Source of the DNA: Candidatus Poribacteria bacterium
GTDB lineage: Bacteria > Poribacteria > WGA-4E > GCA-2687025
Reading direction: 5' to 3'
Assembly (NCBI GenBank): GCA_028818695.1
Contig: JAPPNK010000020.1
Span: 64,632-128,631, forward strand
DNA: 64,000 bases
Below are positions 1 through 12,661 of the stretch, in pieces. Every line of letters starts with the position of its first letter. Within the stretch, counting starts at the first letter, position 1. The notes beneath the pieces were generated by a model. The model had not been told where the DNA came from. It did not search any database and saw nothing but the letters and a program-made list of their open reading frames with translations. Position numbers and translations under genes: made by a program.

Positions 1-376
1 CATTAAAGCATGCGCGGTTTAAGAATAGAAAATCCAGCGGATCTCCATGCTGGTTGAACCGTTCTCGGACAGCGTAGTAGTGTTCGCCTTCCGAGCGCCG
101 TAACTCAGCGCCTTCTTCCTTGAGAAAGCGCCGCGCTGAATCAGCGGTGATTTGGCCGTCGGCGACCGCTTGATAAAAGCGGATGATGTGCGGGTTGGAA
201 TCAGCCAGCAACGCTTGCTTTGGGCGGATATTGAACGCGACAGCGCCCGATCCCATGAACGGCTCAATCCATCTCCCGCCGAAGTCGGACGGTACCGCTG
301 AACGTATCCATGGCGTCAGTTTGGTCTTGATGCCTTGACATTTGATCGGAGGTACGAGCGTTCTGTCGAGATTCAT
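1..376 (-). CDS. Dam / M.EcoRV-family N6-adenine DNA methyltransferase, N-terminal part only (gene runs off the window start)
   Basis: Hand translation of minus strand from ATG at 376-374: [20 protein letters not shown]...[11 protein letters not shown] (FxGxG SAM motif)...[12 protein letters not shown]...[26 protein letters not shown], matching recalled Dam-family motifs. Not in the ORF track because no stop lies inside the window; track ORF 19..267 is a different frame. ATG overlaps the upstream endonuclease stop (ATGA). Confidence 0.8.
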
Positions 377-1206
377 TTGCGGTTGTTTCTTAGGACAATG
401 AGAGATGCGTCGCCGCCTCGGTATTGGACAAACTCTTTGAGCGAGGTGATCTGCTTCATTTCTCCGGTTTCCCCTTTCACGGTGATTTTACCATAATTCA
501 TCCAGTAGTCGTCAAACCATTCTTCGCCGAGCTTTGCGAACATTCCGTTTCCAGACAGAATATCCTCGATTCGCTGAATGCTCCCGATATTCGCTGTGTT
601 GCCCGACCCTCTCTTGTCGCTTGCGATCTTCCATTTTTCGGTCACAAAAAACTGGATGTTGGAGATGGTCGATGCTATGGACTGGAGTTTGTCAAGGGAA
701 TGCGGCTGTACTCTGTCTCCTGTTGAGCTGTCTAACCGGTCGTAGATGATTCCGATGCAAAAATGGCCCGCGTAGGAATCATAGGGAAACTGGATATTTT
801 TCACGCTTGAGCGGTCTCTAAAATATCTCCCATGCGATCCCAATGTGAAACCGTTGCAGAGCCAAGGTTTCTTGGGGTTGCGGTATGTCGTTTTGAAATC
901 CACGGCGAATCTTATTCTTTCATCGTCCTTCGAGACAAAGGAAATGTCTGGATAGTAATTTTGATGCTCTGGAAGAACGACTGCAAGGCGTTGCCGTTCG
1001 GCAAACTCAAGAATTTTGGGGAACAGGTGAATCTCCAAGATTTTGGATACGACCTTTGTATCTGCCGAAATCGTGTAGATTTGCCGAGAAATATCGATAA
1101 ATCCCTTGACAGCCCATTGTCCGTCCGGCGCGCTGGCATGATCGGAAAGGGCGCTTTTCCATGCGTTCAGAGCCGATTCAAAGTCGCTTTTTGTCAGTAT
1201 GGACAT
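373..1206 (-). CDS. EcoRV-family Type II restriction endonuclease (PD...D-x-K)
   Basis: 277 aa ORF. Blocks match recalled R.EcoRV: [19 protein letters not shown] (Q-loop/PD), AVDFKTTY (D-x-K), [11 protein letters not shown] (R-loop-like recognition segment), DYWMNY. GC about 48% in a sampled line versus >60% flanking. Confidence 0.85.
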
Positions 1207-2007
1207 CTATGCGCTCCAGATTGTGCCGTTCTCTTTGCGTACGATCTTTTTAATATCGCGGTAGCCGGCGCGGGAAACCAGCTCGCGCGTTTCAGGCGAC
1301 AGCCGCGACACGATCGGCTCAGGCAGGTCCCCCATCGGTTTGAACTGCAGATGGTACCGCAGAACCAGAATGCGCCGAATGCGGTCGGTAGGCTTCCAGC
1401 GCAAGGCTCCGTGCGTCAGCCGCTCGGTGATGACGACAAAATCGCCCGCCCGCGGACAGATATTGAGAACGCCGGGCGGGAGCTCATCGGCGTCGTCGAA
1501 CGACTCCTTCCCAAACAGATCCTTGGGGCGGTCGAATTCGCTTTTGTGCGAGCCTGCGACCACGATGACGCCGCCGTCGTCGGGGTTCACATCGTCCAGA
1601 TATGGAAAGACGACAATATGATCCGCAAAGACGCGCCCATGCCGAACCGCGTAAGGAGGCGTCGTCCAGTGGTAATCGTCGCGGGCGCAGTGAAGACGGA
1701 GAGGCGCGTCCCCCGCCGCGTTGATCTGCAGCGTTCCGCTTGTGAGACGGGGCCGGTTGTCCAGCAGCTCTTTGACGACCGGCCATGTCGTTGGGTGAAG
1801 CGCAAGCCGCTCCAACGCCTTGTCGAAGGCGAACCCATGGAGGTACCGCCTGTTGTCGACGCCGAAGCCCGACGGCAGCCGTTCGGGCGGCGCGTCGATA
1901 TACCGCTGGGACGCCTCCTGCGCCGCCGCCAGCTCCTCGGCGGTCATCGCGTTTGGGATATGCAGATAGCCGAATGTGTCGAACAGATATCGTTGCTCAG
2001 GCGTCAT
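1207..2007 (-). CDS. Phytanoyl-CoA dioxygenase (PhyH) family Fe(II)/2-oxoglutarate oxygenase
   Basis: 266 aa; overall PhyH-like pattern with His/Asp-containing segments (HCARDDYHW, AGSHKSE, ERLTHGAL). Host-like GC. Its TAG stop directly abuts the endonuclease ATG. Confidence 0.7.
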   Translation of the reverse strand: MTPEQRYLFDTFGYLHIPNAMTAEELAAAQEASQRYIDAPPERLPSGFGVDNRRYLHGFAFDKALERLALHPTTWPVVKELLDNRPRLTSGTLQINAAGDAPLRLHCARDDYHWTTPPYAVRHGRVFADHIVVFPYLDDVNPDDGGVIVVAGSHKSEFDRPKDLFGKESFDDADELPPGVLNICPRAGDFVVITERLTHGALRWKPTDRIRRILVLRYHLQFKPMGDLPEPIVSRLSPETRELVSRAGYRDIKKIVRKENGTIWSA

Positions 2008-2031
2008 ACGGGTCTCCTTCTGCTGCGCGGT

Positions 2032-2790
2032 TCATTCGTCAAACAGAAAAACGTTGCCGTGAATCGGATCTCCTGGACCTGTGAAATACTCCTTGCCTTG
2101 TATCGTTGCCGCATGGCAATCTAGACATGGGGCGAAGTTGAAAATGCCGTGCGTCTCATGGTCGGCGATGATCTCCTCCGTGCTGTGGACATGGCAGCCG
2201 ATGCAGGCGTGTTCGTTGTATCGGTTGCGGTATTCATGGCACATGGCGCAGGCGGCGTCATGGACAACCTCGCCCTTGGGCGTTTTCGCTTCTAAGGGGA
2301 ACCATGGGTGGCGCACTTTATGAATGCCATGCCCGATGAAGCCGACGATGAGCGCGATGACAGATATGAGATGAATCCGCAGGGCGTAGTAACGAACCCA
2401 CCGCTTCGTGAAGTGGGTCACAAACCCTGTCAGCATCGCAAAGGAGGCGAGCGCCAGAGCCGCCCATCCGCCGAACGAAGCGGGGGCCATTGCCGTGTGG
2501 ATGACGATCAGCGCAAAGCCGGCTCCCGCAAAAAACCAGTGCGCTTTGAGCCAGCGCGCCTGATGTCCAAAGCGTATCCATCGGCGGCGGCGCCGAAGCG
2601 CAAACGGCATGTTCAGCATAAAACAGACGACGCCGACAATGCTGATCGGATGTCGAATCAGGTCGTAACGCTCGACCCATGTTGCAGCCGCCCAGACCGC
2701 CAGCCCCGCCAAAGCGGCTCCCAGCGAGACATAATAAAGCCCGCGAACCCAGTATGCGACAAAGCCGCTTTTCCAACGTATTAGCGCCAT
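2032..2790 (-). CDS. Membrane-anchored multihaem c-type cytochrome (three CxxCH)
   Basis: N-terminal hydrophobic segments, then CAMCH, CIGCH and CLDCH haem-binding motifs. Start taken at internal Met (MALIRW); the track ORF extends to 2838. Confidence 0.65.
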   Translation of the reverse strand: MALIRWKSGFVAYWVRGLYYVSLGAALAGLAVWAAATWVERYDLIRHPISIVGVVCFMLNMPFALRRRRRWIRFGHQARWLKAHWFFAGAGFALIVIHTAMAPASFGGWAALALASFAMLTGFVTHFTKRWVRYYALRIHLISVIALIVGFIGHGIHKVRHPWFPLEAKTPKGEVVHDAACAMCHEYRNRYNEHACIGCHVHSTEEIIADHETHGIFNFAPCLDCHAATIQGKEYFTGPGDPIHGNVFLFDE

Positions 2791-2877
2791 CGGCTCTCCT
2801 TGACTATAATGCATACGATACGATGAAACGCTGCGCATTCCAAGAGGCGCAGGCGAACAAAGCGTTGGGAGAAACAG

Positions 2878-3942
2878 ATGGACCGCGTCAAGATCGCTCT
2901 TGTGGGCGTCGGAAATCGCGGCAGGAACACTTATCTGCCGATCATACAGATTTTAAAGCGCGACCTTGAGTTTGCCGCGGTGTGCGACGTTCGGGCGGAC
3001 GCCGCCGAAGAAGCGGGAGGATTTGCCGGCGTCCCCGCTTACACCGACCTTGAAAAGATGGTCTCGGAGACGCAGCCCGATGTGTGCGCCGTCGTTGTCA
3101 ATCCGAGCCGAACCCATGAGGCGGGCGTCCCGCTCGCGCAGATGGGCGTCAGCTACAGTACCGAAACGCCCATCAACTCAAGCCTGGAGAGGGCGGACGA
3201 GATGATCGCCGCCGCCGAAAAGCATGGGGTGAAGATTGAGGTGAACGAGCAGTACTACCGCGTCCCGACGGAGCGCATCAAGCGGCAGATGATCCTGGAA
3301 GGCGTCTTTGGAAAGGTGTTGACGGCGTACAACGACTTCCGCGGGCATGGCTACCATGGCGTCGGCTTGATCCGCAGCTACATCGGCTTTGAAGTGAGGG
3401 CGAAGCGGGTATTCGGCTTTGTTCGAACGCATGCGGTTCAAAGCCACTACTACCGCGGTAGAAATCCGAAGGATGAGAGCTGGCAGCATGGCGTCATTGA
3501 GTTTGAAAACGGCAGCGTCGGCATTTTCAACTTCTCAAGCCTGTCGTACGGCTCGCCGCTGCGCCGTTTCAGGTCGACCAAGTTCTTTGGCGAGCGCGGT
3601 TTTTGCGTCAAGGAGGAGGCGTCCGTGTTGGACGATTCCGCTTCAAAGCAGCGGCAAATTGCGATCAAGCGGCGGACGCACACGGTCGACGGCGTGGAGA
3701 CGATCGCGGCGATGGAAGCGGACGCGCCGACGCCTGTTGTCTGGGAAAACCCGCTGCGGGACTATCCGCTCAGCGAAGGGCAGATCTCCGTCGCGTCGGA
3801 GATCATGAGCATCGCAAACGCGGTTCGACACGGTACCGATCCTGAATACGGTCCGCATAACGGACGCGCCGACCGAGAGATTGATCTGGCGATGTCGCGC
3901 TCTTGGGGTTCCGGCGGCGCCGCTGTAGAATTGCCGCTTTGA
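2878..3942 (+). CDS. Gfo/Idh/MocA family oxidoreductase
   Basis: 354 aa; N-terminal Rossmann motif KIALVGVGNRG and C-terminal alpha/beta domain typical of the family. Confidence 0.8.
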   Translation: MDRVKIALVGVGNRGRNTYLPIIQILKRDLEFAAVCDVRADAAEEAGGFAGVPAYTDLEKMVSETQPDVCAVVVNPSRTHEAGVPLAQMGVSYSTETPINSSLERADEMIAAAEKHGVKIEVNEQYYRVPTERIKRQMILEGVFGKVLTAYNDFRGHGYHGVGLIRSYIGFEVRAKRVFGFVRTHAVQSHYYRGRNPKDESWQHGVIEFENGSVGIFNFSSLSYGSPLRRFRSTKFFGERGFCVKEEASVLDDSASKQRQIAIKRRTHTVDGVETIAAMEADAPTPVVWENPLRDYPLSEGQISVASEIMSIANAVRHGTDPEYGPHNGRADREIDLAMSRSWGSGGAAVELPL

Positions 3943-3965: not shown

Positions 3966-4280
3966 ATGGAATCGAACTGGATCACCTTGACAGAGGCGGC
4001 AGAGCGGATGCAGGAGCTGTATGCAAGCTCGGGCCGCTCCGTCTCCCGCAAGACGGTCAGCCGATGGGCTGCAAGCGGCAAAATCGAGGCGAAGCGGGAG
4101 GGGCGGTACTGGAAAGTGAACGCAGAGTCGCTCTGCGCCGCGGCGGCGGAGACGCTTGGAGAGATGGACGTTGAGGCGGAGCTGGCGGAGCCGGCGGAGG
4201 ACGCTGTCGGCGCGCTGCGGCGGTTCATACAGCGGCGGAACGCGCTTTTTTTGCGCGACCTTGAAGACGGCGTGGATTGA
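3966..4280 (+). CDS. Small helix-turn-helix DNA-binding protein (excisionase/MerR-like HTH)
   Basis: Internal Met start MESNWITLTEAAERM...SRKTVSRWAASGKIEAKREGRYWKV resembles excisionase-type HTH; overlaps the 3' end of the upstream oxidoreductase gene. Confidence 0.45.
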   Translation: MESNWITLTEAAERMQELYASSGRSVSRKTVSRWAASGKIEAKREGRYWKVNAESLCAAAAETLGEMDVEAELAEPAEDAVGALRRFIQRRNALFLRDLEDGVD

Positions 4281-5247: not shown

Positions 5248-6753
5248 TCATCGAAGCATGAGAAAGGTCGACAACGGCAAACTGACGATGCGCGGATCAT
5301 CGACCGTTTCGGCATCAACTTGCGTGATGAGTATTCCGAAGGGAGCGTTATTCGCCGATTTTTCCAAAAATGAACGCAGCCCCAACGTGTCGCGGTGCGA
5401 ATCGATGCGCTTGCGGTATTTCACTTCTACAGGGATGCGATAATTGCCGACCGTCAAAACAAAATCGACTTCCTGGTCCATGCCTCTTTGCGGAAAATGA
5501 GCGACATCAAGACCGTGAATGGTTGAAGCCGCCGCGCCAAAGACGCTTTCCGCGATACGCCCCGCCATGTCTGATATTTCCGGCTGCTGCGCTAAAATGT
5601 CCGGCGCAAACGGAATCTGCTCCTGGAGCCAACAGGCGCGGAGACTATGGTCAGCCAAGCATATTTTGGGTCCTCCGCGCCTCTTTCTTAGACGGATCTC
5701 TAATGGAGGAATCAACCTCAACAGCAGCGTGTCTCCAAGCAGCTTCAAGTAGCTGACAACGCGCTGATAGTTAACGCCCGCTCCAAGCGTCAAATTCACT
5801 TCTTCCGTTAAAGTAGATGCGTTGGGAGCTTGACCTGCATAGCGGCATGCCAAGCGCAAAACCTCTTCCAATAATTCTGAGTCCCGTTGCTCCCCTCGTC
5901 CGCTCGCCTGCAGATCATGCTGAATGACTCTCTGGATGACCGTCTCATTCAGATGCCCCGTCAAATCTGCCATTGGAACATCTTTTTCTTTATGGGCTAT
6001 TGGGTAGCCGCCCCTCTCTGAAAACAACCGAAACGCTTCATTTCGAAATTCTTGAAACGCAACGCCCTGATTGCGCAGCGATATCCAATATTCTTTATCG
6101 CGTAGATTGGATATGCCGTTCGCCTCGAGAAACGGCGCCGGCGATGAAAGACCGCGCAGCGCGCCGATCTCTGTCAGCGAGAGAACGCCCGCTTCAATCG
6201 TGGTGATGCGCCCCGCGAGGCTGTCGCGCCCCGCTTCAATGCGTAAAGCCGAACTGCCCGTAACGACCGCTTTTACGGAGGCATGGTCCACGAGAGACTT
6301 CAACTGGGCGGCCCAGTCCCTTAAGTTCTGGATCTCGTCAAAAAAGAGATACGCAGGCTCGCCGTCATGCGCCAGCGCATTGAACCGTTTGGGCGCGACA
6401 TGCCGCTCAAACCAGTCTGTGACGCGTAAGATCGGCTCTCGAAGTTTTTTCAACGAATCCAGCTCGTCAAATTGAATGCGCAGGATGCGGAGCGGATGGA
6501 CGCCCTCGTCCAGCAGATCTTGAATCAGTTGGAGCTGCGCTGTCGTCTTGCCAATTTGACGCGGTCCTCGAACCACGACTGCCGGAGCCAAGCCAAGGTC
6601 TAAGCTGCGGCGAATCTGCGGAACCAGATGCCGACGAATAGACGGCAGCAGCGGCATCGCTTCACCCTCCCACCACGGGTTGAAACTGCGCAGATCAGCC
6701 GACAGATCCTGGGGAAGATTTATATCAGCGAAGAACTCTAATTGATCAGCCAT
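5248..6753 (-). CDS. AAA+ ATPase (COG1373 / DUF4143-type ATP-binding protein)
   Basis: 501 aa; Walker A GPRQIGKTT, Walker B-like LFFDEIQ, C-terminal region typical of DUF4143 proteins. Confidence 0.75.
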   Translation of the reverse strand: MADQLEFFADINLPQDLSADLRSFNPWWEGEAMPLLPSIRRHLVPQIRRSLDLGLAPAVVVRGPRQIGKTTAQLQLIQDLLDEGVHPLRILRIQFDELDSLKKLREPILRVTDWFERHVAPKRFNALAHDGEPAYLFFDEIQNLRDWAAQLKSLVDHASVKAVVTGSSALRIEAGRDSLAGRITTIEAGVLSLTEIGALRGLSSPAPFLEANGISNLRDKEYWISLRNQGVAFQEFRNEAFRLFSERGGYPIAHKEKDVPMADLTGHLNETVIQRVIQHDLQASGRGEQRDSELLEEVLRLACRYAGQAPNASTLTEEVNLTLGAGVNYQRVVSYLKLLGDTLLLRLIPPLEIRLRKRRGGPKICLADHSLRACWLQEQIPFAPDILAQQPEISDMAGRIAESVFGAAASTIHGLDVAHFPQRGMDQEVDFVLTVGNYRIPVEVKYRKRIDSHRDTLGLRSFLEKSANNAPFGILITQVDAETVDDPRIVSLPLSTFLMLR

Positions 6754-6950
6754 GAAGCCCTTTCATTTGATAATTACAGCGCCGCCACCCGCAATGATAA
6801 TGGATGGGAGCCTGAAAGCGCAAGCCGCGGACAACTTCCCCGCGAATTCAATGGGCGGGTCGGACAGCGGCAGCGGGTTTGGGAAAAGAGCCTTTTAGCC
6901 TTTTTGTTGGCGGATGTATTGACTGGCTCTGCTTGAAGTTGCGCGGCTAT

Positions 6951-8329
6951 TCATACCTCGCTCCAGTCAATATCTGCAGCTTTAGCCCCGACGATTTTGA
7001 GACCACCCTTTTTTTCATGGCAGACCCATTTCCCCTGAAATGTATTTTCCGTAGAACTCTCTAGTTCAAATGAGAAAATCTTTTTCATGCTATCCAGAAA
7101 TTTTTTGGCAGACGGATCTGCTGTACATAGGTTTTTTGCGACCGGATCTACTATCATAAATTCCTTGTCCTTATAGTAACAACGGCTAATAAGATCATTT
7201 AAATGCCCATCAGCATAGTTAAAGGAATATCCTGTTATAATTACTCGAGAGGCATCTTCCAAGGTATTTTTTGAGTCATGCCATATATCAATGAATTCGC
7301 TGGAGATTAATGGCTTTACTTTCAGAGGAGCTATAATATATGGTAGGATAAAAGAGGGTTCAATTCCTTTTTCAAAGTTAGTGTTATCGACAACAGTATC
7401 TTGGATGAACCCAATGATAGTTTTTTCTGTATCAATAGTACATTTTTGTTGATTATCCATTTTTATGAAGTTATTCAAATTGCCATGAAAGTAGTGCGTT
7501 TTACCGTTTCCTGGACGCTTTTCAGCGAATGATGTATAATTAAGTGTTATCATATCCCAGTCATCAGGCAGCTTAGAATAAAATGGAATAGGGTTTTTAT
7601 TATATTTATACAATACTTTCTCCTCTTGATATTTTAGAAAAGCCCAGAGGGTCCACGATTGGTATATGTACTTTTTTATATTAGATATATCATTATTGTA
7701 TAGTCCTGAAAAGCTATCAGTAAGCAGGCTCTCAATATCAGTTAGGTAACTCTGAAGGTATTTCAGTACAGGATGTTTTGGTTTCGACTTAAGTAAGAGT
7801 TCACGTATAATAACTTTATAATAGTCAGTGAAGGAGGCATTATGAACATCAATCATACGTTCATCCTCGTTATCAGATTCTCCATGTCCAAAAACCTTAT
7901 AAATTAGCTTTTCAATTTCTGGATCTGCCTTTGTACCATCATGAAGATTTTGAACTTTACTGATGATTTTACTAGCTAAAAGACCCTCATCTCTATGTTC
8001 ATCATCTAGCCCGACATCGTTAATTTGAGTATCGATGTTTGTTACAATCTCATCTATTTGAGTTCTGTTATCCCGATGTAGTAACTTTCCCACGTCAGAT
8101 TCTATTATTTTTTCATATTTAAATATATTATTAAAATAGGGTAGCACGCTCTTACTCCGAAAAGTCTTATCGATGGTTCTCCCCTCGTGCGTTTTTTTAG
8201 AAAATTGTCGATACTCGGAATGAGCTCTACCGCTAAGGGTATATCAATCCCATCGCTATTGTCTACGCCTGCGCCGCAAATAACGACTGTTTTCATTTGC
8301 GTTCTTCTCGCTTTCTCGTCTCGCTTCAA
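6951..8329 (-). CDS. SIR2-like domain protein, AT-rich, interrupted by a frameshift (two overlapping ORFs 8105..8329 and 6951..8147); possible pseudogene or phase-variable gene
   Basis: Two minus-strand ORFs in different frames overlap around a T7 (plus strand) homopolymer at about 8191-8199. N-terminal piece has VVICGAGVDNSDGIDIP (GAG motif); C-terminal piece has ITLNYTSFAEK (TxNYD-like), HYFHGNL (HG) and ITGYSFNYADGHL (GYSxxD), in the order expected for prokaryotic SIR2_2 domains. A sampled 60-nt line is 35% GC. Confidence 0.5.
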
Positions 8330-8396
8330 ACATGGCTCAATGCCGTTTCTTTTCTTATGCTCAAAACGTTACCGCAAGCTCGCGATCCGTGTCAAC

Positions 8397-9845
8397 TTAA
8401 AAAAGCGTTTGTTTCATGAGGCGGCCTGTGTAAGGATCCGCCATCGGCGGCAAGGGGCATGGTCGATCATTGAAAAACTCCTCGATTGACCAGAGGCTTA
8501 GGCGCGGATACGCTTGTCCGCGGACGAGAATGTCGCCCAATGCGGCTGCGTTTGCCCTTGCGCTCGGGGAGGTGACGGTTTCTAGCGTAATGAAGCGGCC
8601 GATAGCCGCCTTATCGCGTTCAACAACGCCTATAAAATCGCGCAGGCTGCTGATATTAAACCGCCCGCCTTTGACCTGCGCCAACGCCAGTTTCGATTCC
8701 CAATTGTCAGGTTGGTCGTATAACGTGGCGCGTCCGTCCACGCCTCCGTCGGCGACCTGCTTTGTATTCGGGATGAATCCTGACAATCGGTTAACCGCCC
8801 ATGCTTCAAATTCAAAAGGCGTTTCCTTTGCCATTTTTTGCGCCGACACAAAATCCGCCGGGATCCCATGAACCGGGATCGTCAAGTCCTGCATACGCCG
8901 CTCGCGTATCATGTCGATGGCAAAGGAGCTGATGTCGACGCCCGCCCATTTTCTTTTGAGGCGGTCAGCCGCCTCCATTGCAGTGCCGCAACCGCAGAAC
9001 GGATCTAAAACGATGTCGCCTTCATTGGACGACGCCTTGATGATTCGCTCTAACAAAGACAGCGGCTTCTGCGTCGGATAGCCCGTTTTTTCTTTTGCCA
9101 TTGGGTTGACGGGGAAAATGTCTGTCCAAATATCCGATACGGGCTTACCTTTGGACGAATCTAGGTACTGTTTTCGGTTCCCAACTTGTAGCCGGTACCT
9201 GCGTCCGTCTTCATCCGTATGTTTGAAACGTCTTGCGATATACTCTTCCGTGTACGGTATGTACTGACGGTTATGCGTAAATTTTTTACTGGCGGCGTAA
9301 TTGAAAATTATATCGTGCCCGGGGACGAATTTTTGCCCGCCCGCCTTTCCTCCCGACGCTGTGCTTCTTTGCCAGACAATTTCATTTCTATAATTCGCTT
9401 TTCCGAATACTGCGTCCATGAGCAATTTTAAGCAGTGGCTCGCAGTTGGGTCGCAGTGGAGGTAAATGGAGCCTGTCGGTTTCAGAATGCGCTGCATTTC
9501 TTCAAGGCGTTCCGCCATATAGGTCAGGTATGCCAGCATGCCGCTCTCACCCAGCGCATGCCACAACCCGACAATCGCCTTATGCGCAGGACGTCCAACC
9601 GCATCTCGGAACCCGTTGTATCGAACGGCTGCAGCCTTATCCCAGTACCAGGTGTCTTTGAACGCCTGGTATTGCGCCTTGCCCGCGCCCTTTGTCCCGA
9701 AGAGAATGCTGTAATTCGCGTTGGAATTGAACGGCGGATCCAGGTAAATCAGGTCGACGCAGTCCGCGTCCCATTTCCGCATCCAGTCGAGACAATCGCC
9801 GTAGTAGAGGCTGTTGGGTTGAAGCTGATTCCCGCCGTAAGACAT
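8397..9845 (-). CDS. Beta-class N6-adenine/N4-cytosine DNA methyltransferase (PF01555-like) fused to a C-terminal Mrr-like PD-(D/E)xK domain
   Basis: 482 aa; motif IV LIYLDPPFNS precedes motif I VLDPFCGCGTA (beta-class order); C-terminal 150 aa has Mrr_cat-like FEAWAV...DGGVDG...AQVK...GRFITL pattern. Confidence 0.8.
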   Translation of the reverse strand: MSYGGNQLQPNSLYYGDCLDWMRKWDADCVDLIYLDPPFNSNANYSILFGTKGAGKAQYQAFKDTWYWDKAAAVRYNGFRDAVGRPAHKAIVGLWHALGESGMLAYLTYMAERLEEMQRILKPTGSIYLHCDPTASHCLKLLMDAVFGKANYRNEIVWQRSTASGGKAGGQKFVPGHDIIFNYAASKKFTHNRQYIPYTEEYIARRFKHTDEDGRRYRLQVGNRKQYLDSSKGKPVSDIWTDIFPVNPMAKEKTGYPTQKPLSLLERIIKASSNEGDIVLDPFCGCGTAMEAADRLKRKWAGVDISSFAIDMIRERRMQDLTIPVHGIPADFVSAQKMAKETPFEFEAWAVNRLSGFIPNTKQVADGGVDGRATLYDQPDNWESKLALAQVKGGRFNISSLRDFIGVVERDKAAIGRFITLETVTSPSARANAAALGDILVRGQAYPRLSLWSIEEFFNDRPCPLPPMADPYTGRLMKQTLF

Positions 9846-10036
9846 GCCCGAATCCTTTTCTAAGTCGCGCGTTCATCGTACCACAGAGCCGCCAAAGACG
9901 GCAACTATTTTGACTGACCCCGCGCCTTAAGTTAGGACATGTCGGCGTACGAGCAATCTCCAAAGGTCAGAGGTTGCAGATCAGCGCGGCGCGCGCTAGA
10001 ATAAGCCCGTCTGGATGCGGCGCGGGCGTCTCTATC

Positions 10037-12433
10037 ATGGATTTTCCGAAGGGGCGGTCTTTTAGTTTGAGAATGTTGTTGCCGTTTAGGGTTGGCGTCG
10101 CCCTCTCCTTGCTCTGTTTCTTTGCGCCGGCGTTGGGTCTGCGCGCCGAAGAGGATCTAGAGGATCTCTACGTTGCGCGGTGCGTCTTCTATTCGGACGG
10201 GCGCGTCGTCCGTTTTGACCGCATGCCGATTGTGGCGCGTCTTGGAAAAACGCCTCCGAGCGTGGACGCGGAGCGGTTTGAAAAGGCGTTTCATGAAGCG
10301 GCTAAGATCTGGGAAGAAGCGTCGGGCGGCGTCGTCCGCTTTCGATTTGCGGACGATTCGGAGGAGCATGTGGACCTGCCTGTCGCTTGGATCACGCATC
10401 TTCCTGGGCGCGGGCGGGAGCGTCATCTTGGCAGGGCGGTTCTCTCGCGTTTGACGGGAAGCCCGGACAGCTTCCATGTCAAAATGGAGATTGGCGTCTA
10501 TGACCGGGAGTCGGGGCGCGAGCTGACAGACCAGGAGGCGTTGACCGTCTGCCTGCATGAGTTAGGGCATGCGATCGGGCTTTGGGGTCACAGCGACCGT
10601 GAAGAAGATATTATGTCGCCCGCTTCTGCCGCGCCCGCCCCGACTCAGCGCGACGCGGACACCCTGCGCGCCATTTATGAAATGCCGGTGAACGCGCCGC
10701 TGCATGAGCCGGCGATGCGGGAGCTGCGCGGCGAGATCGAAGAGCGGCCGGACGATCCCGCCCCGCGCTATCTTCTTGGGTCTGTCGCGCTGGACGCGGA
10801 GCGGTACGACGAGGCGGTTGAGGCGCTTCAAGCGGCGCTGAAGATAGACCGATTTCACATGGCAGCGGGCGAAAAACTTGTCATGGCGTATCTCGAGGCG
10901 GAGCGGTATGACGAAGCGGCGCGTCAGCTTTACGACGGGCCGCTTTTCAGCGCGGAGCTGTATAACAACGCCGGCATTGTGTTCGCTGAGAAAGAAGCCT
11001 CCGAAGACGCTCTCAAGGCGTTTCAACAAGCTCTCGATCTGAAACCGACGATGGAAGCGGCGCGGCGAAATCTTGCGCGGGTTTATGCGCGTATCGGGGT
11101 GGACAAGATCAAAGCGGAGGAAACGAAAGCGGCGTACGACGCCTTTCGGCAGGCTTGGGAGCTGGACAAGCGCGCCGCCTATGGGCTTCAGCTGGGTTCA
11201 ACGCTGGGCTTGATGAAACGGCATCTGGAAGCCGCGCGCGTCTATAAGCAGGTTTTGGGGGAGTTTCCCGACAATCGGGACGCGCGGATGAACCTAGCCG
11301 CCGCTTATAACAATCTGGGCGTGGGCGCCAGCGAAAAAAAGCAGTGGGAAAGAGCGCTCCGCTACTTTGATCAAGCCTCCGAAGCGGACCCCGATTTTGA
11401 AATGAGCGTTCAGAATCGCCTTGCGGCCCTCTGGCAATGGGCGTCTTCTTTAGAAACGGCGAACCCGGCAAAGGCGGTCAGCTTATACCAAGAATATCTC
11501 TCTGCGGTTCCGAGCGCCTGGGAGGCGCATGCGCAGATCGGAATGATTTACAGCCGGGCGGAGGCGCACGATAAAGCGGCGAAGGCGTATGAAGAGGCGC
11601 TGCGCCTGAACCCCGACCGGGAGACGGTTCGGCGCAACCTTGCCATCGTCTATTACAAACGCGCAAATCAGCTGTTGGAATCGGGGCTGAGCGAAGAGGC
11701 GGCGGCGTATTTTTTACAATCGATCCAAACGGATGCGAGCCTCGCCGGTCCGTATCAGGGGCTGGCGGCGGCGTATGTGAGGTCGGACAAATGGACGGAG
11801 GCGGCAAACGCCCTAGAAGAAGCGCTGCGCCGTAAACCGGACGACGAATGGGCGCGCAAATGGCTTTCTGCCGCGGCGATTGAGCTCGGAAATGCGGCTG
11901 TTGCGCGGGAAGATTTTGAAGCCGCTGTACGGGAGTTTGAACGCGCGCCCCTTGAAACGCGCGACGCGCGCGTGAACGGCATGCTTGGCTTTCTTTACAC
12001 GAAGTTAGAACGGTATGATCGGGCGGTTGATTCGCTTGGACGCGCGTTGCTGGCAAATCCGAAGAATGAATCGTTTCGGAATAATCTGGAGTTCAACAGA
12101 AGAGCGGTCAAAGACATTTTGAAGCGCGACAAGTCGTTCCGATGGCGCAGCGTATGGATACGTTTGGAGGCGTACCGCCTCGCCTCTTTGATCGGAAGTA
12201 AGATGAAAAAGGGCGATCTGGAGAAGTTTGACCGGTTCCTACAGATAGAGCTGGAGGCGGAGGAGAAAGACGCCGAGGAGGTCGCATTGACTGTCGGAGC
12301 GATACAGGATTGCGCTTTGTTTGCCGCAGAGAAGGGGCGCGCGTCTTATCCGGGGCTGGCGCGCGGGATTGCCGTTAAAGCGCTGCGGTATGATCGCCGG
12401 CATGAGGGGTTGGCGCAGTTTTTGGGGGAATAG
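10037..12433 (+). CDS. Secreted metzincin-like zinc metalloprotease domain fused to tetratricopeptide (TPR) repeats
   Basis: Signal-peptide-like N-terminus; HELGHAIGLWGH (HExxHxxGxxH) with downstream Met; multiple TPR-like repeats in the C-terminal 550 aa. Track ORF starts at TTG 9974; ATG at 10037 preferred. Confidence 0.7.
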   Translation: MDFPKGRSFSLRMLLPFRVGVALSLLCFFAPALGLRAEEDLEDLYVARCVFYSDGRVVRFDRMPIVARLGKTPPSVDAERFEKAFHEAAKIWEEASGGVVRFRFADDSEEHVDLPVAWITHLPGRGRERHLGRAVLSRLTGSPDSFHVKMEIGVYDRESGRELTDQEALTVCLHELGHAIGLWGHSDREEDIMSPASAAPAPTQRDADTLRAIYEMPVNAPLHEPAMRELRGEIEERPDDPAPRYLLGSVALDAERYDEAVEALQAALKIDRFHMAAGEKLVMAYLEAERYDEAARQLYDGPLFSAELYNNAGIVFAEKEASEDALKAFQQALDLKPTMEAARRNLARVYARIGVDKIKAEETKAAYDAFRQAWELDKRAAYGLQLGSTLGLMKRHLEAARVYKQVLGEFPDNRDARMNLAAAYNNLGVGASEKKQWERALRYFDQASEADPDFEMSVQNRLAALWQWASSLETANPAKAVSLYQEYLSAVPSAWEAHAQIGMIYSRAEAHDKAAKAYEEALRLNPDRETVRRNLAIVYYKRANQLLESGLSEEAAAYFLQSIQTDASLAGPYQGLAAAYVRSDKWTEAANALEEALRRKPDDEWARKWLSAAAIELGNAAVAREDFEAAVREFERAPLETRDARVNGMLGFLYTKLERYDRAVDSLGRALLANPKNESFRNNLEFNRRAVKDILKRDKSFRWRSVWIRLEAYRLASLIGSKMKKGDLEKFDRFLQIELEAEEKDAEEVALTVGAIQDCALFAAEKGRASYPGLARGIAVKALRYDRRHEGLAQFLGE

Positions 12434-12574: not shown

Positions 12575-12661
12575 GGGCGGGTGGTGGAAATGGCAGACAC
12601 GATAGATTTAGGATCTATTGGGCGAAAGCCTGTAAGGGTTCAAGTCCCTTCTCGCCCACCA
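12575..12661 (+). tRNA. tRNA-Leu (anticodon UAG), type II with long variable arm
   Basis: 87 nt cloverleaf folded by hand: 7-bp acceptor stem GGGCGGG/CTCGCCC (one GU), anticodon stem ATAGA/TCTAT, loop TTTAGGA (U33, anticodon TAG, G37), long variable arm, T-arm AAGGG-TTCAAGT-CCCTT, encoded ACCA 3' end. Confidence 0.9.

Follow-up and report, generated by a model that had tools for sequence, protein, structure and literature searches.

The EcoRV restriction-modification (R-M) system of the E. coli plasmid pLG13 is the textbook member of its family, with the methyltransferase gene (M) on one strand and, on the other, a helix-turn-helix controller (C) gene that overlaps the endonuclease gene (R). 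Its endonuclease cuts GAT^ATC to leave blunt ends. The catalytic residues of the EcoRV endonuclease are D74, D90 and K92 (PMC4081073). Endonuclease-first operons form a described class of R-M systems, represented by EcoRI, SalI and Eco29kI (PMC3113576). In Eco29kI, R lies before M, the two genes partly overlap and there is no controller protein, and the upstream region contains neither a recognition site nor an operator (PMC3113576). How R-first pairs without a controller spare a new host has been investigated in only a few systems, namely EcoRI, SalI and Eco29kI. Within the EcoRV family itself, R-then-M pairs are present on the plasmids pRMAR01 of Rhodothermus marinus DSM 4252 and pSMS3-1 of Antarctobacter heliothermus, where they carry the RefSeq names 'EcoRV family type II restriction endonuclease' and 'Dam family methyltransferase'.

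We analysed a 64,000-nucleotide stretch of DNA, referred to here as the window, from a Poribacteria-like (sponge-symbiont-like) genome. An R-M pair lies at one edge of the window. We consider it likely that the locus holds a Type IIP system of the EcoRV family on the chromosome, organised as an R-then-M unit without a C gene, which would recognise GATATC, derive from a lower-GC source, and be expressed by read-through and translational coupling. Its enzymes belong to the same two families as those of pLG13, with the same catalytic residues and a near-identical recognition loop, and the target GATATC is probably common to both systems. In contrast to the pLG13 system, the Poribacteria pair is chromosomal, has R first with M overlapping the R stop codon, and lacks a controller gene. 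The pairs of pRMAR01 and pSMS3-1 are closer, belonging to the same branch (54% identity); as here, they have R before M and lack a controller gene, the two genes overlapping by 4 nt or 1 nt. Those pairs are plasmid-borne, whereas the Poribacteria pair is on a chromosome and has neither mobility genes nor flanking repeats. As in EcoRI, SalI and Eco29kI, R precedes M in what is probably a single operon and there is no controller, although the enzymes of those systems are from families unrelated to the Poribacteria pair.

The endonuclease gene occupies positions 373..1206 of the window on the minus strand, and its 277-aa product belongs to the EcoRV family with a PD-(D/E)XK fold. The protein matched the Pfam profile PF09233 (Endonuc-EcoRV) with an E-value of 2.7e-115 and a score of 384.4 bits (cut-off 25), and the match spanned profile positions 3-244 of 244 (242/244). 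Crystal-structure chains of R.EcoRV (PDB 1eo3/1az0) matched at E 2e-38, and alignment with R.EcoRV of pLG13 gave 34% identity. A search of NCBIfam profiles gave no match for R; its close relatives are already named 'EcoRV family' in RefSeq records. Residues E58, D87, D103 and K105 align with EcoRV E45 (which we take to be a catalytic residue), D74, D90 and K92, and all four are invariant in an alignment of homologues (A1). The recognition loop (residues 200-209) reads GSGNTAN where EcoRV has GSGNTTN(IGS). Within it, the equivalents of the base-contacting residues G182, G184, N185, T186 and N188 are retained, and the one substitution, of alanine for the equivalent of T187, is invariant across the R-then-M branch in A1. 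The Q-loop residues Q69 and N70 of EcoRV are likewise retained, as Q82 and N83. The protein is 32 aa longer than R.EcoRV (277 versus 245 aa), with extensions at both the N- and C-termini.

Only the first 125 codons of the methyltransferase gene lie in the window (2..376, minus strand), the ORF being cut by the window edge. This fragment is free of stop codons and matched PF02086 (MethyltransfD12) at E 2e-22, as a Dam-family protein of the D12 (alpha) class of N6-adenine methyltransferases. The exact R protein is also present on a 298-kb metagenome scaffold in ENA (L001), which supplied the rest of M; the contig extension called for in the original prediction was thereby achieved, and the full gene (L001 10831-11745) encodes 304 aa. 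The full protein matched PF02086 at E 1.7e-47 and TIGR00571 (dam) with 212.6 bits (cut-off 114.85), and it is 59% identical to M.EcoRV of pLG13 over 275 aa (E 6e-134). It contains the motifs CDPPYI (DPPY) and PFMGSGAV (FxGxG). Chains of E. coli Dam, DpnM and T4 Dam matched M at E 1e-21 to 1e-13 only, and the score against the Dam equivalog NF008152 was 103 bits, below its cut-off of 441. By sequence, M is closer to M.EcoRV than to the GATC-specific Dam enzymes. The original prediction had recognised the catalytic PD...D-x-K motif and recognition loop of R.EcoRV in the endonuclease, and a Dam/M.EcoRV-like protein in the truncated ORF downstream. The equivalents of D74, D90 and K92 and the loop are conserved, the full methyltransferase bears out the second identification, and matches to the EcoRV family were found for R in Pfam, PDB and pLG13 and for M in pLG13.

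R most probably cuts unmethylated GATATC as a Mg2+-dependent PD-(D/E)XK enzyme, and M most probably confers protection on the host through N6-methylation of an adenine in the same sequence. GATATC is the likely target because M is nearer to M.EcoRV than to GATC-specific Dam and the recognition loop is conserved. An enzyme with the EcoRV fold that recognises some other target appears unlikely. The identity of R to R.EcoRV is only 34%, the terminal extensions have no counterpart in R.EcoRV and the T187 equivalent is alanine throughout the branch, all of which would be compatible with altered specificity. Set against this are the similarity of M to M.EcoRV, which takes in the catalytic and target-recognition parts of the protein in full, the retention of the base-contacting residues of the R-loop and of the Q-loop residues, and an under-representation of GATATC by the Markov estimate. 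GATATC occurs 7 times in the 64-kb window, against 18.3 sites expected under the Markov model (ratio 0.38) and 11.2 ± 2.9 in dinucleotide shuffles, from which the count does not differ significantly. Depletion is thus moderate by the Markov model and suggestive at best, 64 kb being too little sequence to settle the matter.

Other palindromes were also counted. The MluI-type palindrome ACGCGT was found 2 times in the whole window against 25.8 expected (Markov model), a far stronger depletion than that of GATATC, and several other palindromic hexamers were absent from the window. This pattern suggests that the genome is under pressure from many restriction systems.

R and M share 4 nt in an ATGA overlap (373..376, minus strand), in which the TGA stop codon of R occupies 373-375 and the ATG of M 374-376. 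The Shine-Dalgarno sequence of M is weak: upstream of its ATG is AAGAAAC, a weakened form of the AAGGAAC found in most relatives. At its other end R abuts a gene for a PhyH-family dioxygenase (1207..2007, minus strand; 266 aa; PF05721, E 3.8e-14), and no controller gene encoding a helix-turn-helix protein was found upstream of R, where PhyH stands. The junction between the two genes, GGAG-CGCA-TAG-ATG (1204..1217, minus strand), contains the TAG stop codon of PhyH at 1207-1209 and the ATG of R at 1204-1206, with a gap of 0 nt and the two genes in the same frame. The last nucleotides of PhyH include a Shine-Dalgarno-like GGAG (1214-1217), 7 nt before the R start codon. Alignment with 11 homologues (A2) shows a full-length PhyH whose C-terminus is normal.

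A gene for a predicted cytochrome-like membrane protein of 252 aa (2032..2790, minus strand) lies 24 nt upstream of PhyH. The protein has three CxxCH haem-binding motifs (CAMCH, CIGCH and CLDCH) and gave no match in Pfam or NCBIfam. A ribosome-binding site, AAGGAGAG, is present just 5′ of its ATG (2788-2790), and the gene is probably the first of a co-directional run, cytochrome-PhyH-R-M.

The GC content of R is 0.474 and that of M 0.525, compared with 0.622 for PhyH, and the corresponding values at third codon positions (GC3) are 0.565, 0.60 and 0.76. The arrangement is therefore as originally predicted: R comes first, co-directional with M and joined to it by an ATGA overlap, unlike the divergent prototype on pLG13, and the R ATG directly follows the PhyH TAG. 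The predicted drop in GC relative to the surroundings is also seen (0.47-0.53 versus 0.62), though the low-GC block, of approximately 5.4 kb (L001 10000-15400), continues past M through two more defence genes.

The most economical reading of transcription at this locus is read-through from the cytochrome and PhyH genes, combined with translational coupling. The pair would be transcribed at least in part by such read-through, translation of R would start at the GGAG-7 nt-ATG site at the PhyH stop codon, and M would be translated by termination and reinitiation at ATGA, coupled to termination of R. Scans for promoter and terminator consensus sequences (window 1-3000 and L001 8200-15600) gave counts equal to those in shuffled sequence and had little power, as the consensus used may not be that of Poribacteria. 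With the scans at chance level, read-through is the default reading and not a result. The stability of RNA structure at either junction was also similar to that of shuffled sequence (z = 0.5 and 0.8), and so gives no support for obligatory coupling.

It is possible, though somewhat doubtful, that the pair is instead controlled in the manner of EcoRI, SalI and Eco29kI. R would then have its own promoter in the 3′ end of PhyH and M a promoter inside R, perhaps with antisense promoters damping R, and host read-through would be irrelevant. In the R-first systems that have been studied, a promoter for M located inside R is enough to give full methylation, and R expression is reduced by antisense promoters (PMC3113576). 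Most relatives of the Poribacteria pair have 50-500 nt of DNA upstream and so probably have a promoter of their own. A sigma-70-like sense site is present within the Poribacteria R gene (window 849 to 820, TTCACA-16-GATATT, 9/12 matches). The number of such sites is what chance would give, however, with 2 sigma-70-like sites found against 1.4 ± 1.2 in shuffled sequence, and the single site inside R is weak. An M promoter inside R and antisense promoters define the regulation of EcoRI, SalI and Eco29kI; no counterparts to them rose above chance in the scans of the Poribacteria locus. Nor was any window of constrained synonymous sites found in R when 59 non-redundant homologues were compared (mean relative entropy 0.95), which argues against an embedded element common to the branch. 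The claim that there is no room for a promoter between PhyH and R thus stands for the intergenic DNA, which is 0 nt long, and not for the genes on either side of the junction, since a promoter within PhyH or R is possible, as in EcoRI and Eco29kI. We continue to favour read-through with coupling.

Four other loci of the branch (L007, L011, L014 and L061) have the motif GTTAGCCAYAAG...AGAGATCA approximately 10-30 nt upstream of the R start. They include an Anaerolineae MAG, a Gemmatimonadetes MAG and Thiofaba sp., and L011 is from an unclassified bacterium. The motif is absent from the Poribacteria locus; it may represent a promoter or operator carried along with certain members of the branch.

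The closest genome to that of the window is the Candidatus Poribacteria MAG chromosome OY762492.1 (L003), in which R is 94% identical. L001, L003 and a related contig (L002) share approximately 91% DNA identity from the 2-hydroxyacid dehydrogenase (2-Hacid_dh) gene through M, and the TAG-ATG junction of PhyH and R is identical in all three. Synonymous divergence (dS) was 0.22-0.27 for R, 0.25-0.36 for M and 0.26-0.29 for PhyH. The dN/dS ratios of R and M against two orthologues were 0.12-0.19, as low as that of PhyH, and each of the three genomes has an intact R ORF. The similarity of dS to that of PhyH, together with the low dN/dS, indicates that the pair and its neighbours have been passed on together, with purifying selection acting on the pair. 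The pair is not a recent insertion, and has been resident since before the three genomes diverged.

The same data bear on the activity of the endonuclease. A locus in which R is inactive or barely expressed could be kept for the sake of M, in an epigenetic or orphan-like role, or as protection from incoming EcoRV-type systems. Long-term chromosomal residence in three genomes would fit such a role, as would the mild depletion of GATATC and the fact that no promoter belonging to the pair was evident in the scans. We nevertheless regard it as very unlikely, because R has remained an intact ORF in three genomes with a dN/dS as low as those of PhyH and M, its catalytic and recognition-loop residues are all conserved, and its ATG is preceded by a good GGAG Shine-Dalgarno sequence.

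From its composition, we infer that the R-M pair came from a lower-GC foreign source and was set flush behind the host PhyH gene. Insertion of R-M systems into operon-like gene clusters has precedent (PMC2993543). The locus resembles cases in the survey of R-M mobility by the Kobayashi group, in which a low-GC pair lies co-directionally at the end of a host gene and has no mobility genes of its own (PMC2993543). Relatives of PhyH were examined in 26 metagenomic loci, and in 0/26 was R or M beside PhyH. Beyond the three genomes that carry the R-M pair, the next PhyH relative is 65% identical and lies in an unrelated context. An orthologous empty site was sought through close PhyH relatives in metagenome contigs and the protein database, and none was found among the data searched, so the insertion event is deduced and not observed. 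When the pair and the whole low-GC block were searched for flanking repeats and target duplications, only short two-copy matches of 14-26 nt were obtained, none of them at a boundary. The original description of the cassette as inserted behind a native gene is supported by the GC contrast and by the PhyH relatives without R-M, with the qualification that no empty site was found and that the pair has long been inherited with its neighbours.

To place the flush junction in context, R was examined in other lineages. A same-strand ORF is present upstream of R in 58 loci, and in 17 of these (29%, a proportion of short gaps not clearly above that of co-directional gene pairs generally) it ends between -17 and +22 nt from the R start. 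We therefore read no special mechanism into the flush junctions. The 17 loci represent 15 independent lineages, Poribacteria and 14 others, and in every one of the 17 the GC content of the upstream ORF exceeds that of R, by 0.07-0.28. Ten of the flush neighbours were scanned with Pfam. Eight of them are unrelated housekeeping-type genes (amidohydrolase, leucyl-tRNA synthetase, DHDPS, EF-G, Orn/DAP decarboxylase, S41 peptidase, PQQ propeller protein and FtsX permease), and the other two had no Pfam match. On pSMS3-1 the arrangement is similar, with R only 11 nt after the preceding repA.

A wider scheme can be imagined in which the R-then-M branch travels as a promoterless two-gene module and persists mainly flush behind a transcribed host gene, a chain of host read-through and coupling (host to R to M) taking the place of controller genes and internal promoters. 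We think this scheme improbable; it draws on the low-GC pairs that stand flush behind unrelated, higher-GC genes in the 15 lineages. If it were true, read-through and coupling would keep the output of R low and tied to that of M.

The extent of the R-then-M layout was assessed in 82 loci, of which 80 are from genomes, one is on the source contig and one is on another metagenome contig. A D12 methyltransferase gene lies immediately downstream of the endonuclease gene on the same strand in all 82, which come from many phyla. In 66/82 the R-M overlap is of the 4-nt ATGA type, and 74/82 have one of 1-8 nt. More than 7,500 database homologues of R were found at E < 1e-5, among them many proteins of approximately 275 aa that are 60-74% identical to R, from Verrucomicrobiota, Chloroflexota, Gemmatimonadota, Gammaproteobacteria and others. 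Annotated plasmids carry the EcoRV family in three layouts: divergent M / C-R (pLG13 and Geobacillus), convergent C-R / M (Leuconostoc and Acinetobacter), and R-then-M without a controller gene (e.g. Rhodothermus marinus pRMAR01 and Antarctobacter pSMS3-1). The R-first overlapping order is thus the norm of a large, horizontally spread and already annotated branch, and is not unusual. The Poribacteria pair is intact but ordinary, its gene order being odd only in comparison with the textbook EcoRV plasmid.

The textbook divergent layout is accordingly unrepresentative of the EcoRV family, in which R-first pairs without a controller are very common and often lie directly behind host genes. Beyond the annotation of one intact EcoRV-type system in a Poribacteria-like genome, the locus adds little. 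As a whole, the R-then-M branch offers many natural replicates for the question of how R-first pairs avoid killing a new host.

Two other loci seen in the survey have features of their own. In a Limisphaerales genome (L022 6001-6824) the endonuclease homologue is cut short, with a match to residues 3-256, and a gap of 61 nt separates it from the start of M; the endonuclease is probably decaying and the methyltransferase next to it intact. On Antarctobacter heliothermus pSMS3-1 (L113 431-5069), repA, R and M lie between two copies of the same IS6 transposase, in a structure that looks like a composite transposon carrying the R-M pair.

On the metagenome scaffold, two further defence-type genes lie downstream of M, beyond the start of the window (L001 11822-15364). 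One encodes a fusion of an N6_N4 methyltransferase to an HNH nuclease (561 aa), and the other a SIR2-domain protein of 602 aa that matched the PADLOC candidate system PDC-S65 at E 7e-189. Homology between L001 and L003 stops approximately 70 nt after the M stop codon, and resumes at a convergent gene of the beta-lactamase family. In L003 the same slot (7819-11624) holds an ORF of 807 aa, which had no PADLOC match, and an ORF of 460 aa with weak GajB/UvrD-like matches. The presence of different genes between M and the beta-lactamase-family gene identifies this slot as a variable defence hot spot, and the R-M pair is its conserved edge. A separate proposal, that a genomic island is attached to the tRNA-Leu gene at 12575-12661, was rejected, as no integrase is present and the genes next to the tRNA gene encode trigger factor and ClpX.

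A second defence-type cluster is present in the window at 5248-9845 on the minus strand. It consists of a gene for an N6_N4 methyltransferase-Mrr_cat nuclease fusion (8397-9845, minus strand), a 398-aa ORF of GC 0.33-0.34 (6951-8147, minus strand) that had no Pfam match and a weak PADLOC match to SIR2 (6e-5), and a gene for an AAA_14/DUF4143 ATPase (5248-6753, minus strand), which corresponds to the PADLOC candidate system PDC-S01. Between the two defence clusters, among high-GC 'native' genes, is a 104-aa ORF with an excisionase-like HTH_17 domain (window 3966-4280, plus strand); no integrase was seen near it. In the related contig L002, the segment equivalent to window 5248-9845 has been swapped for other genes, including Fic.
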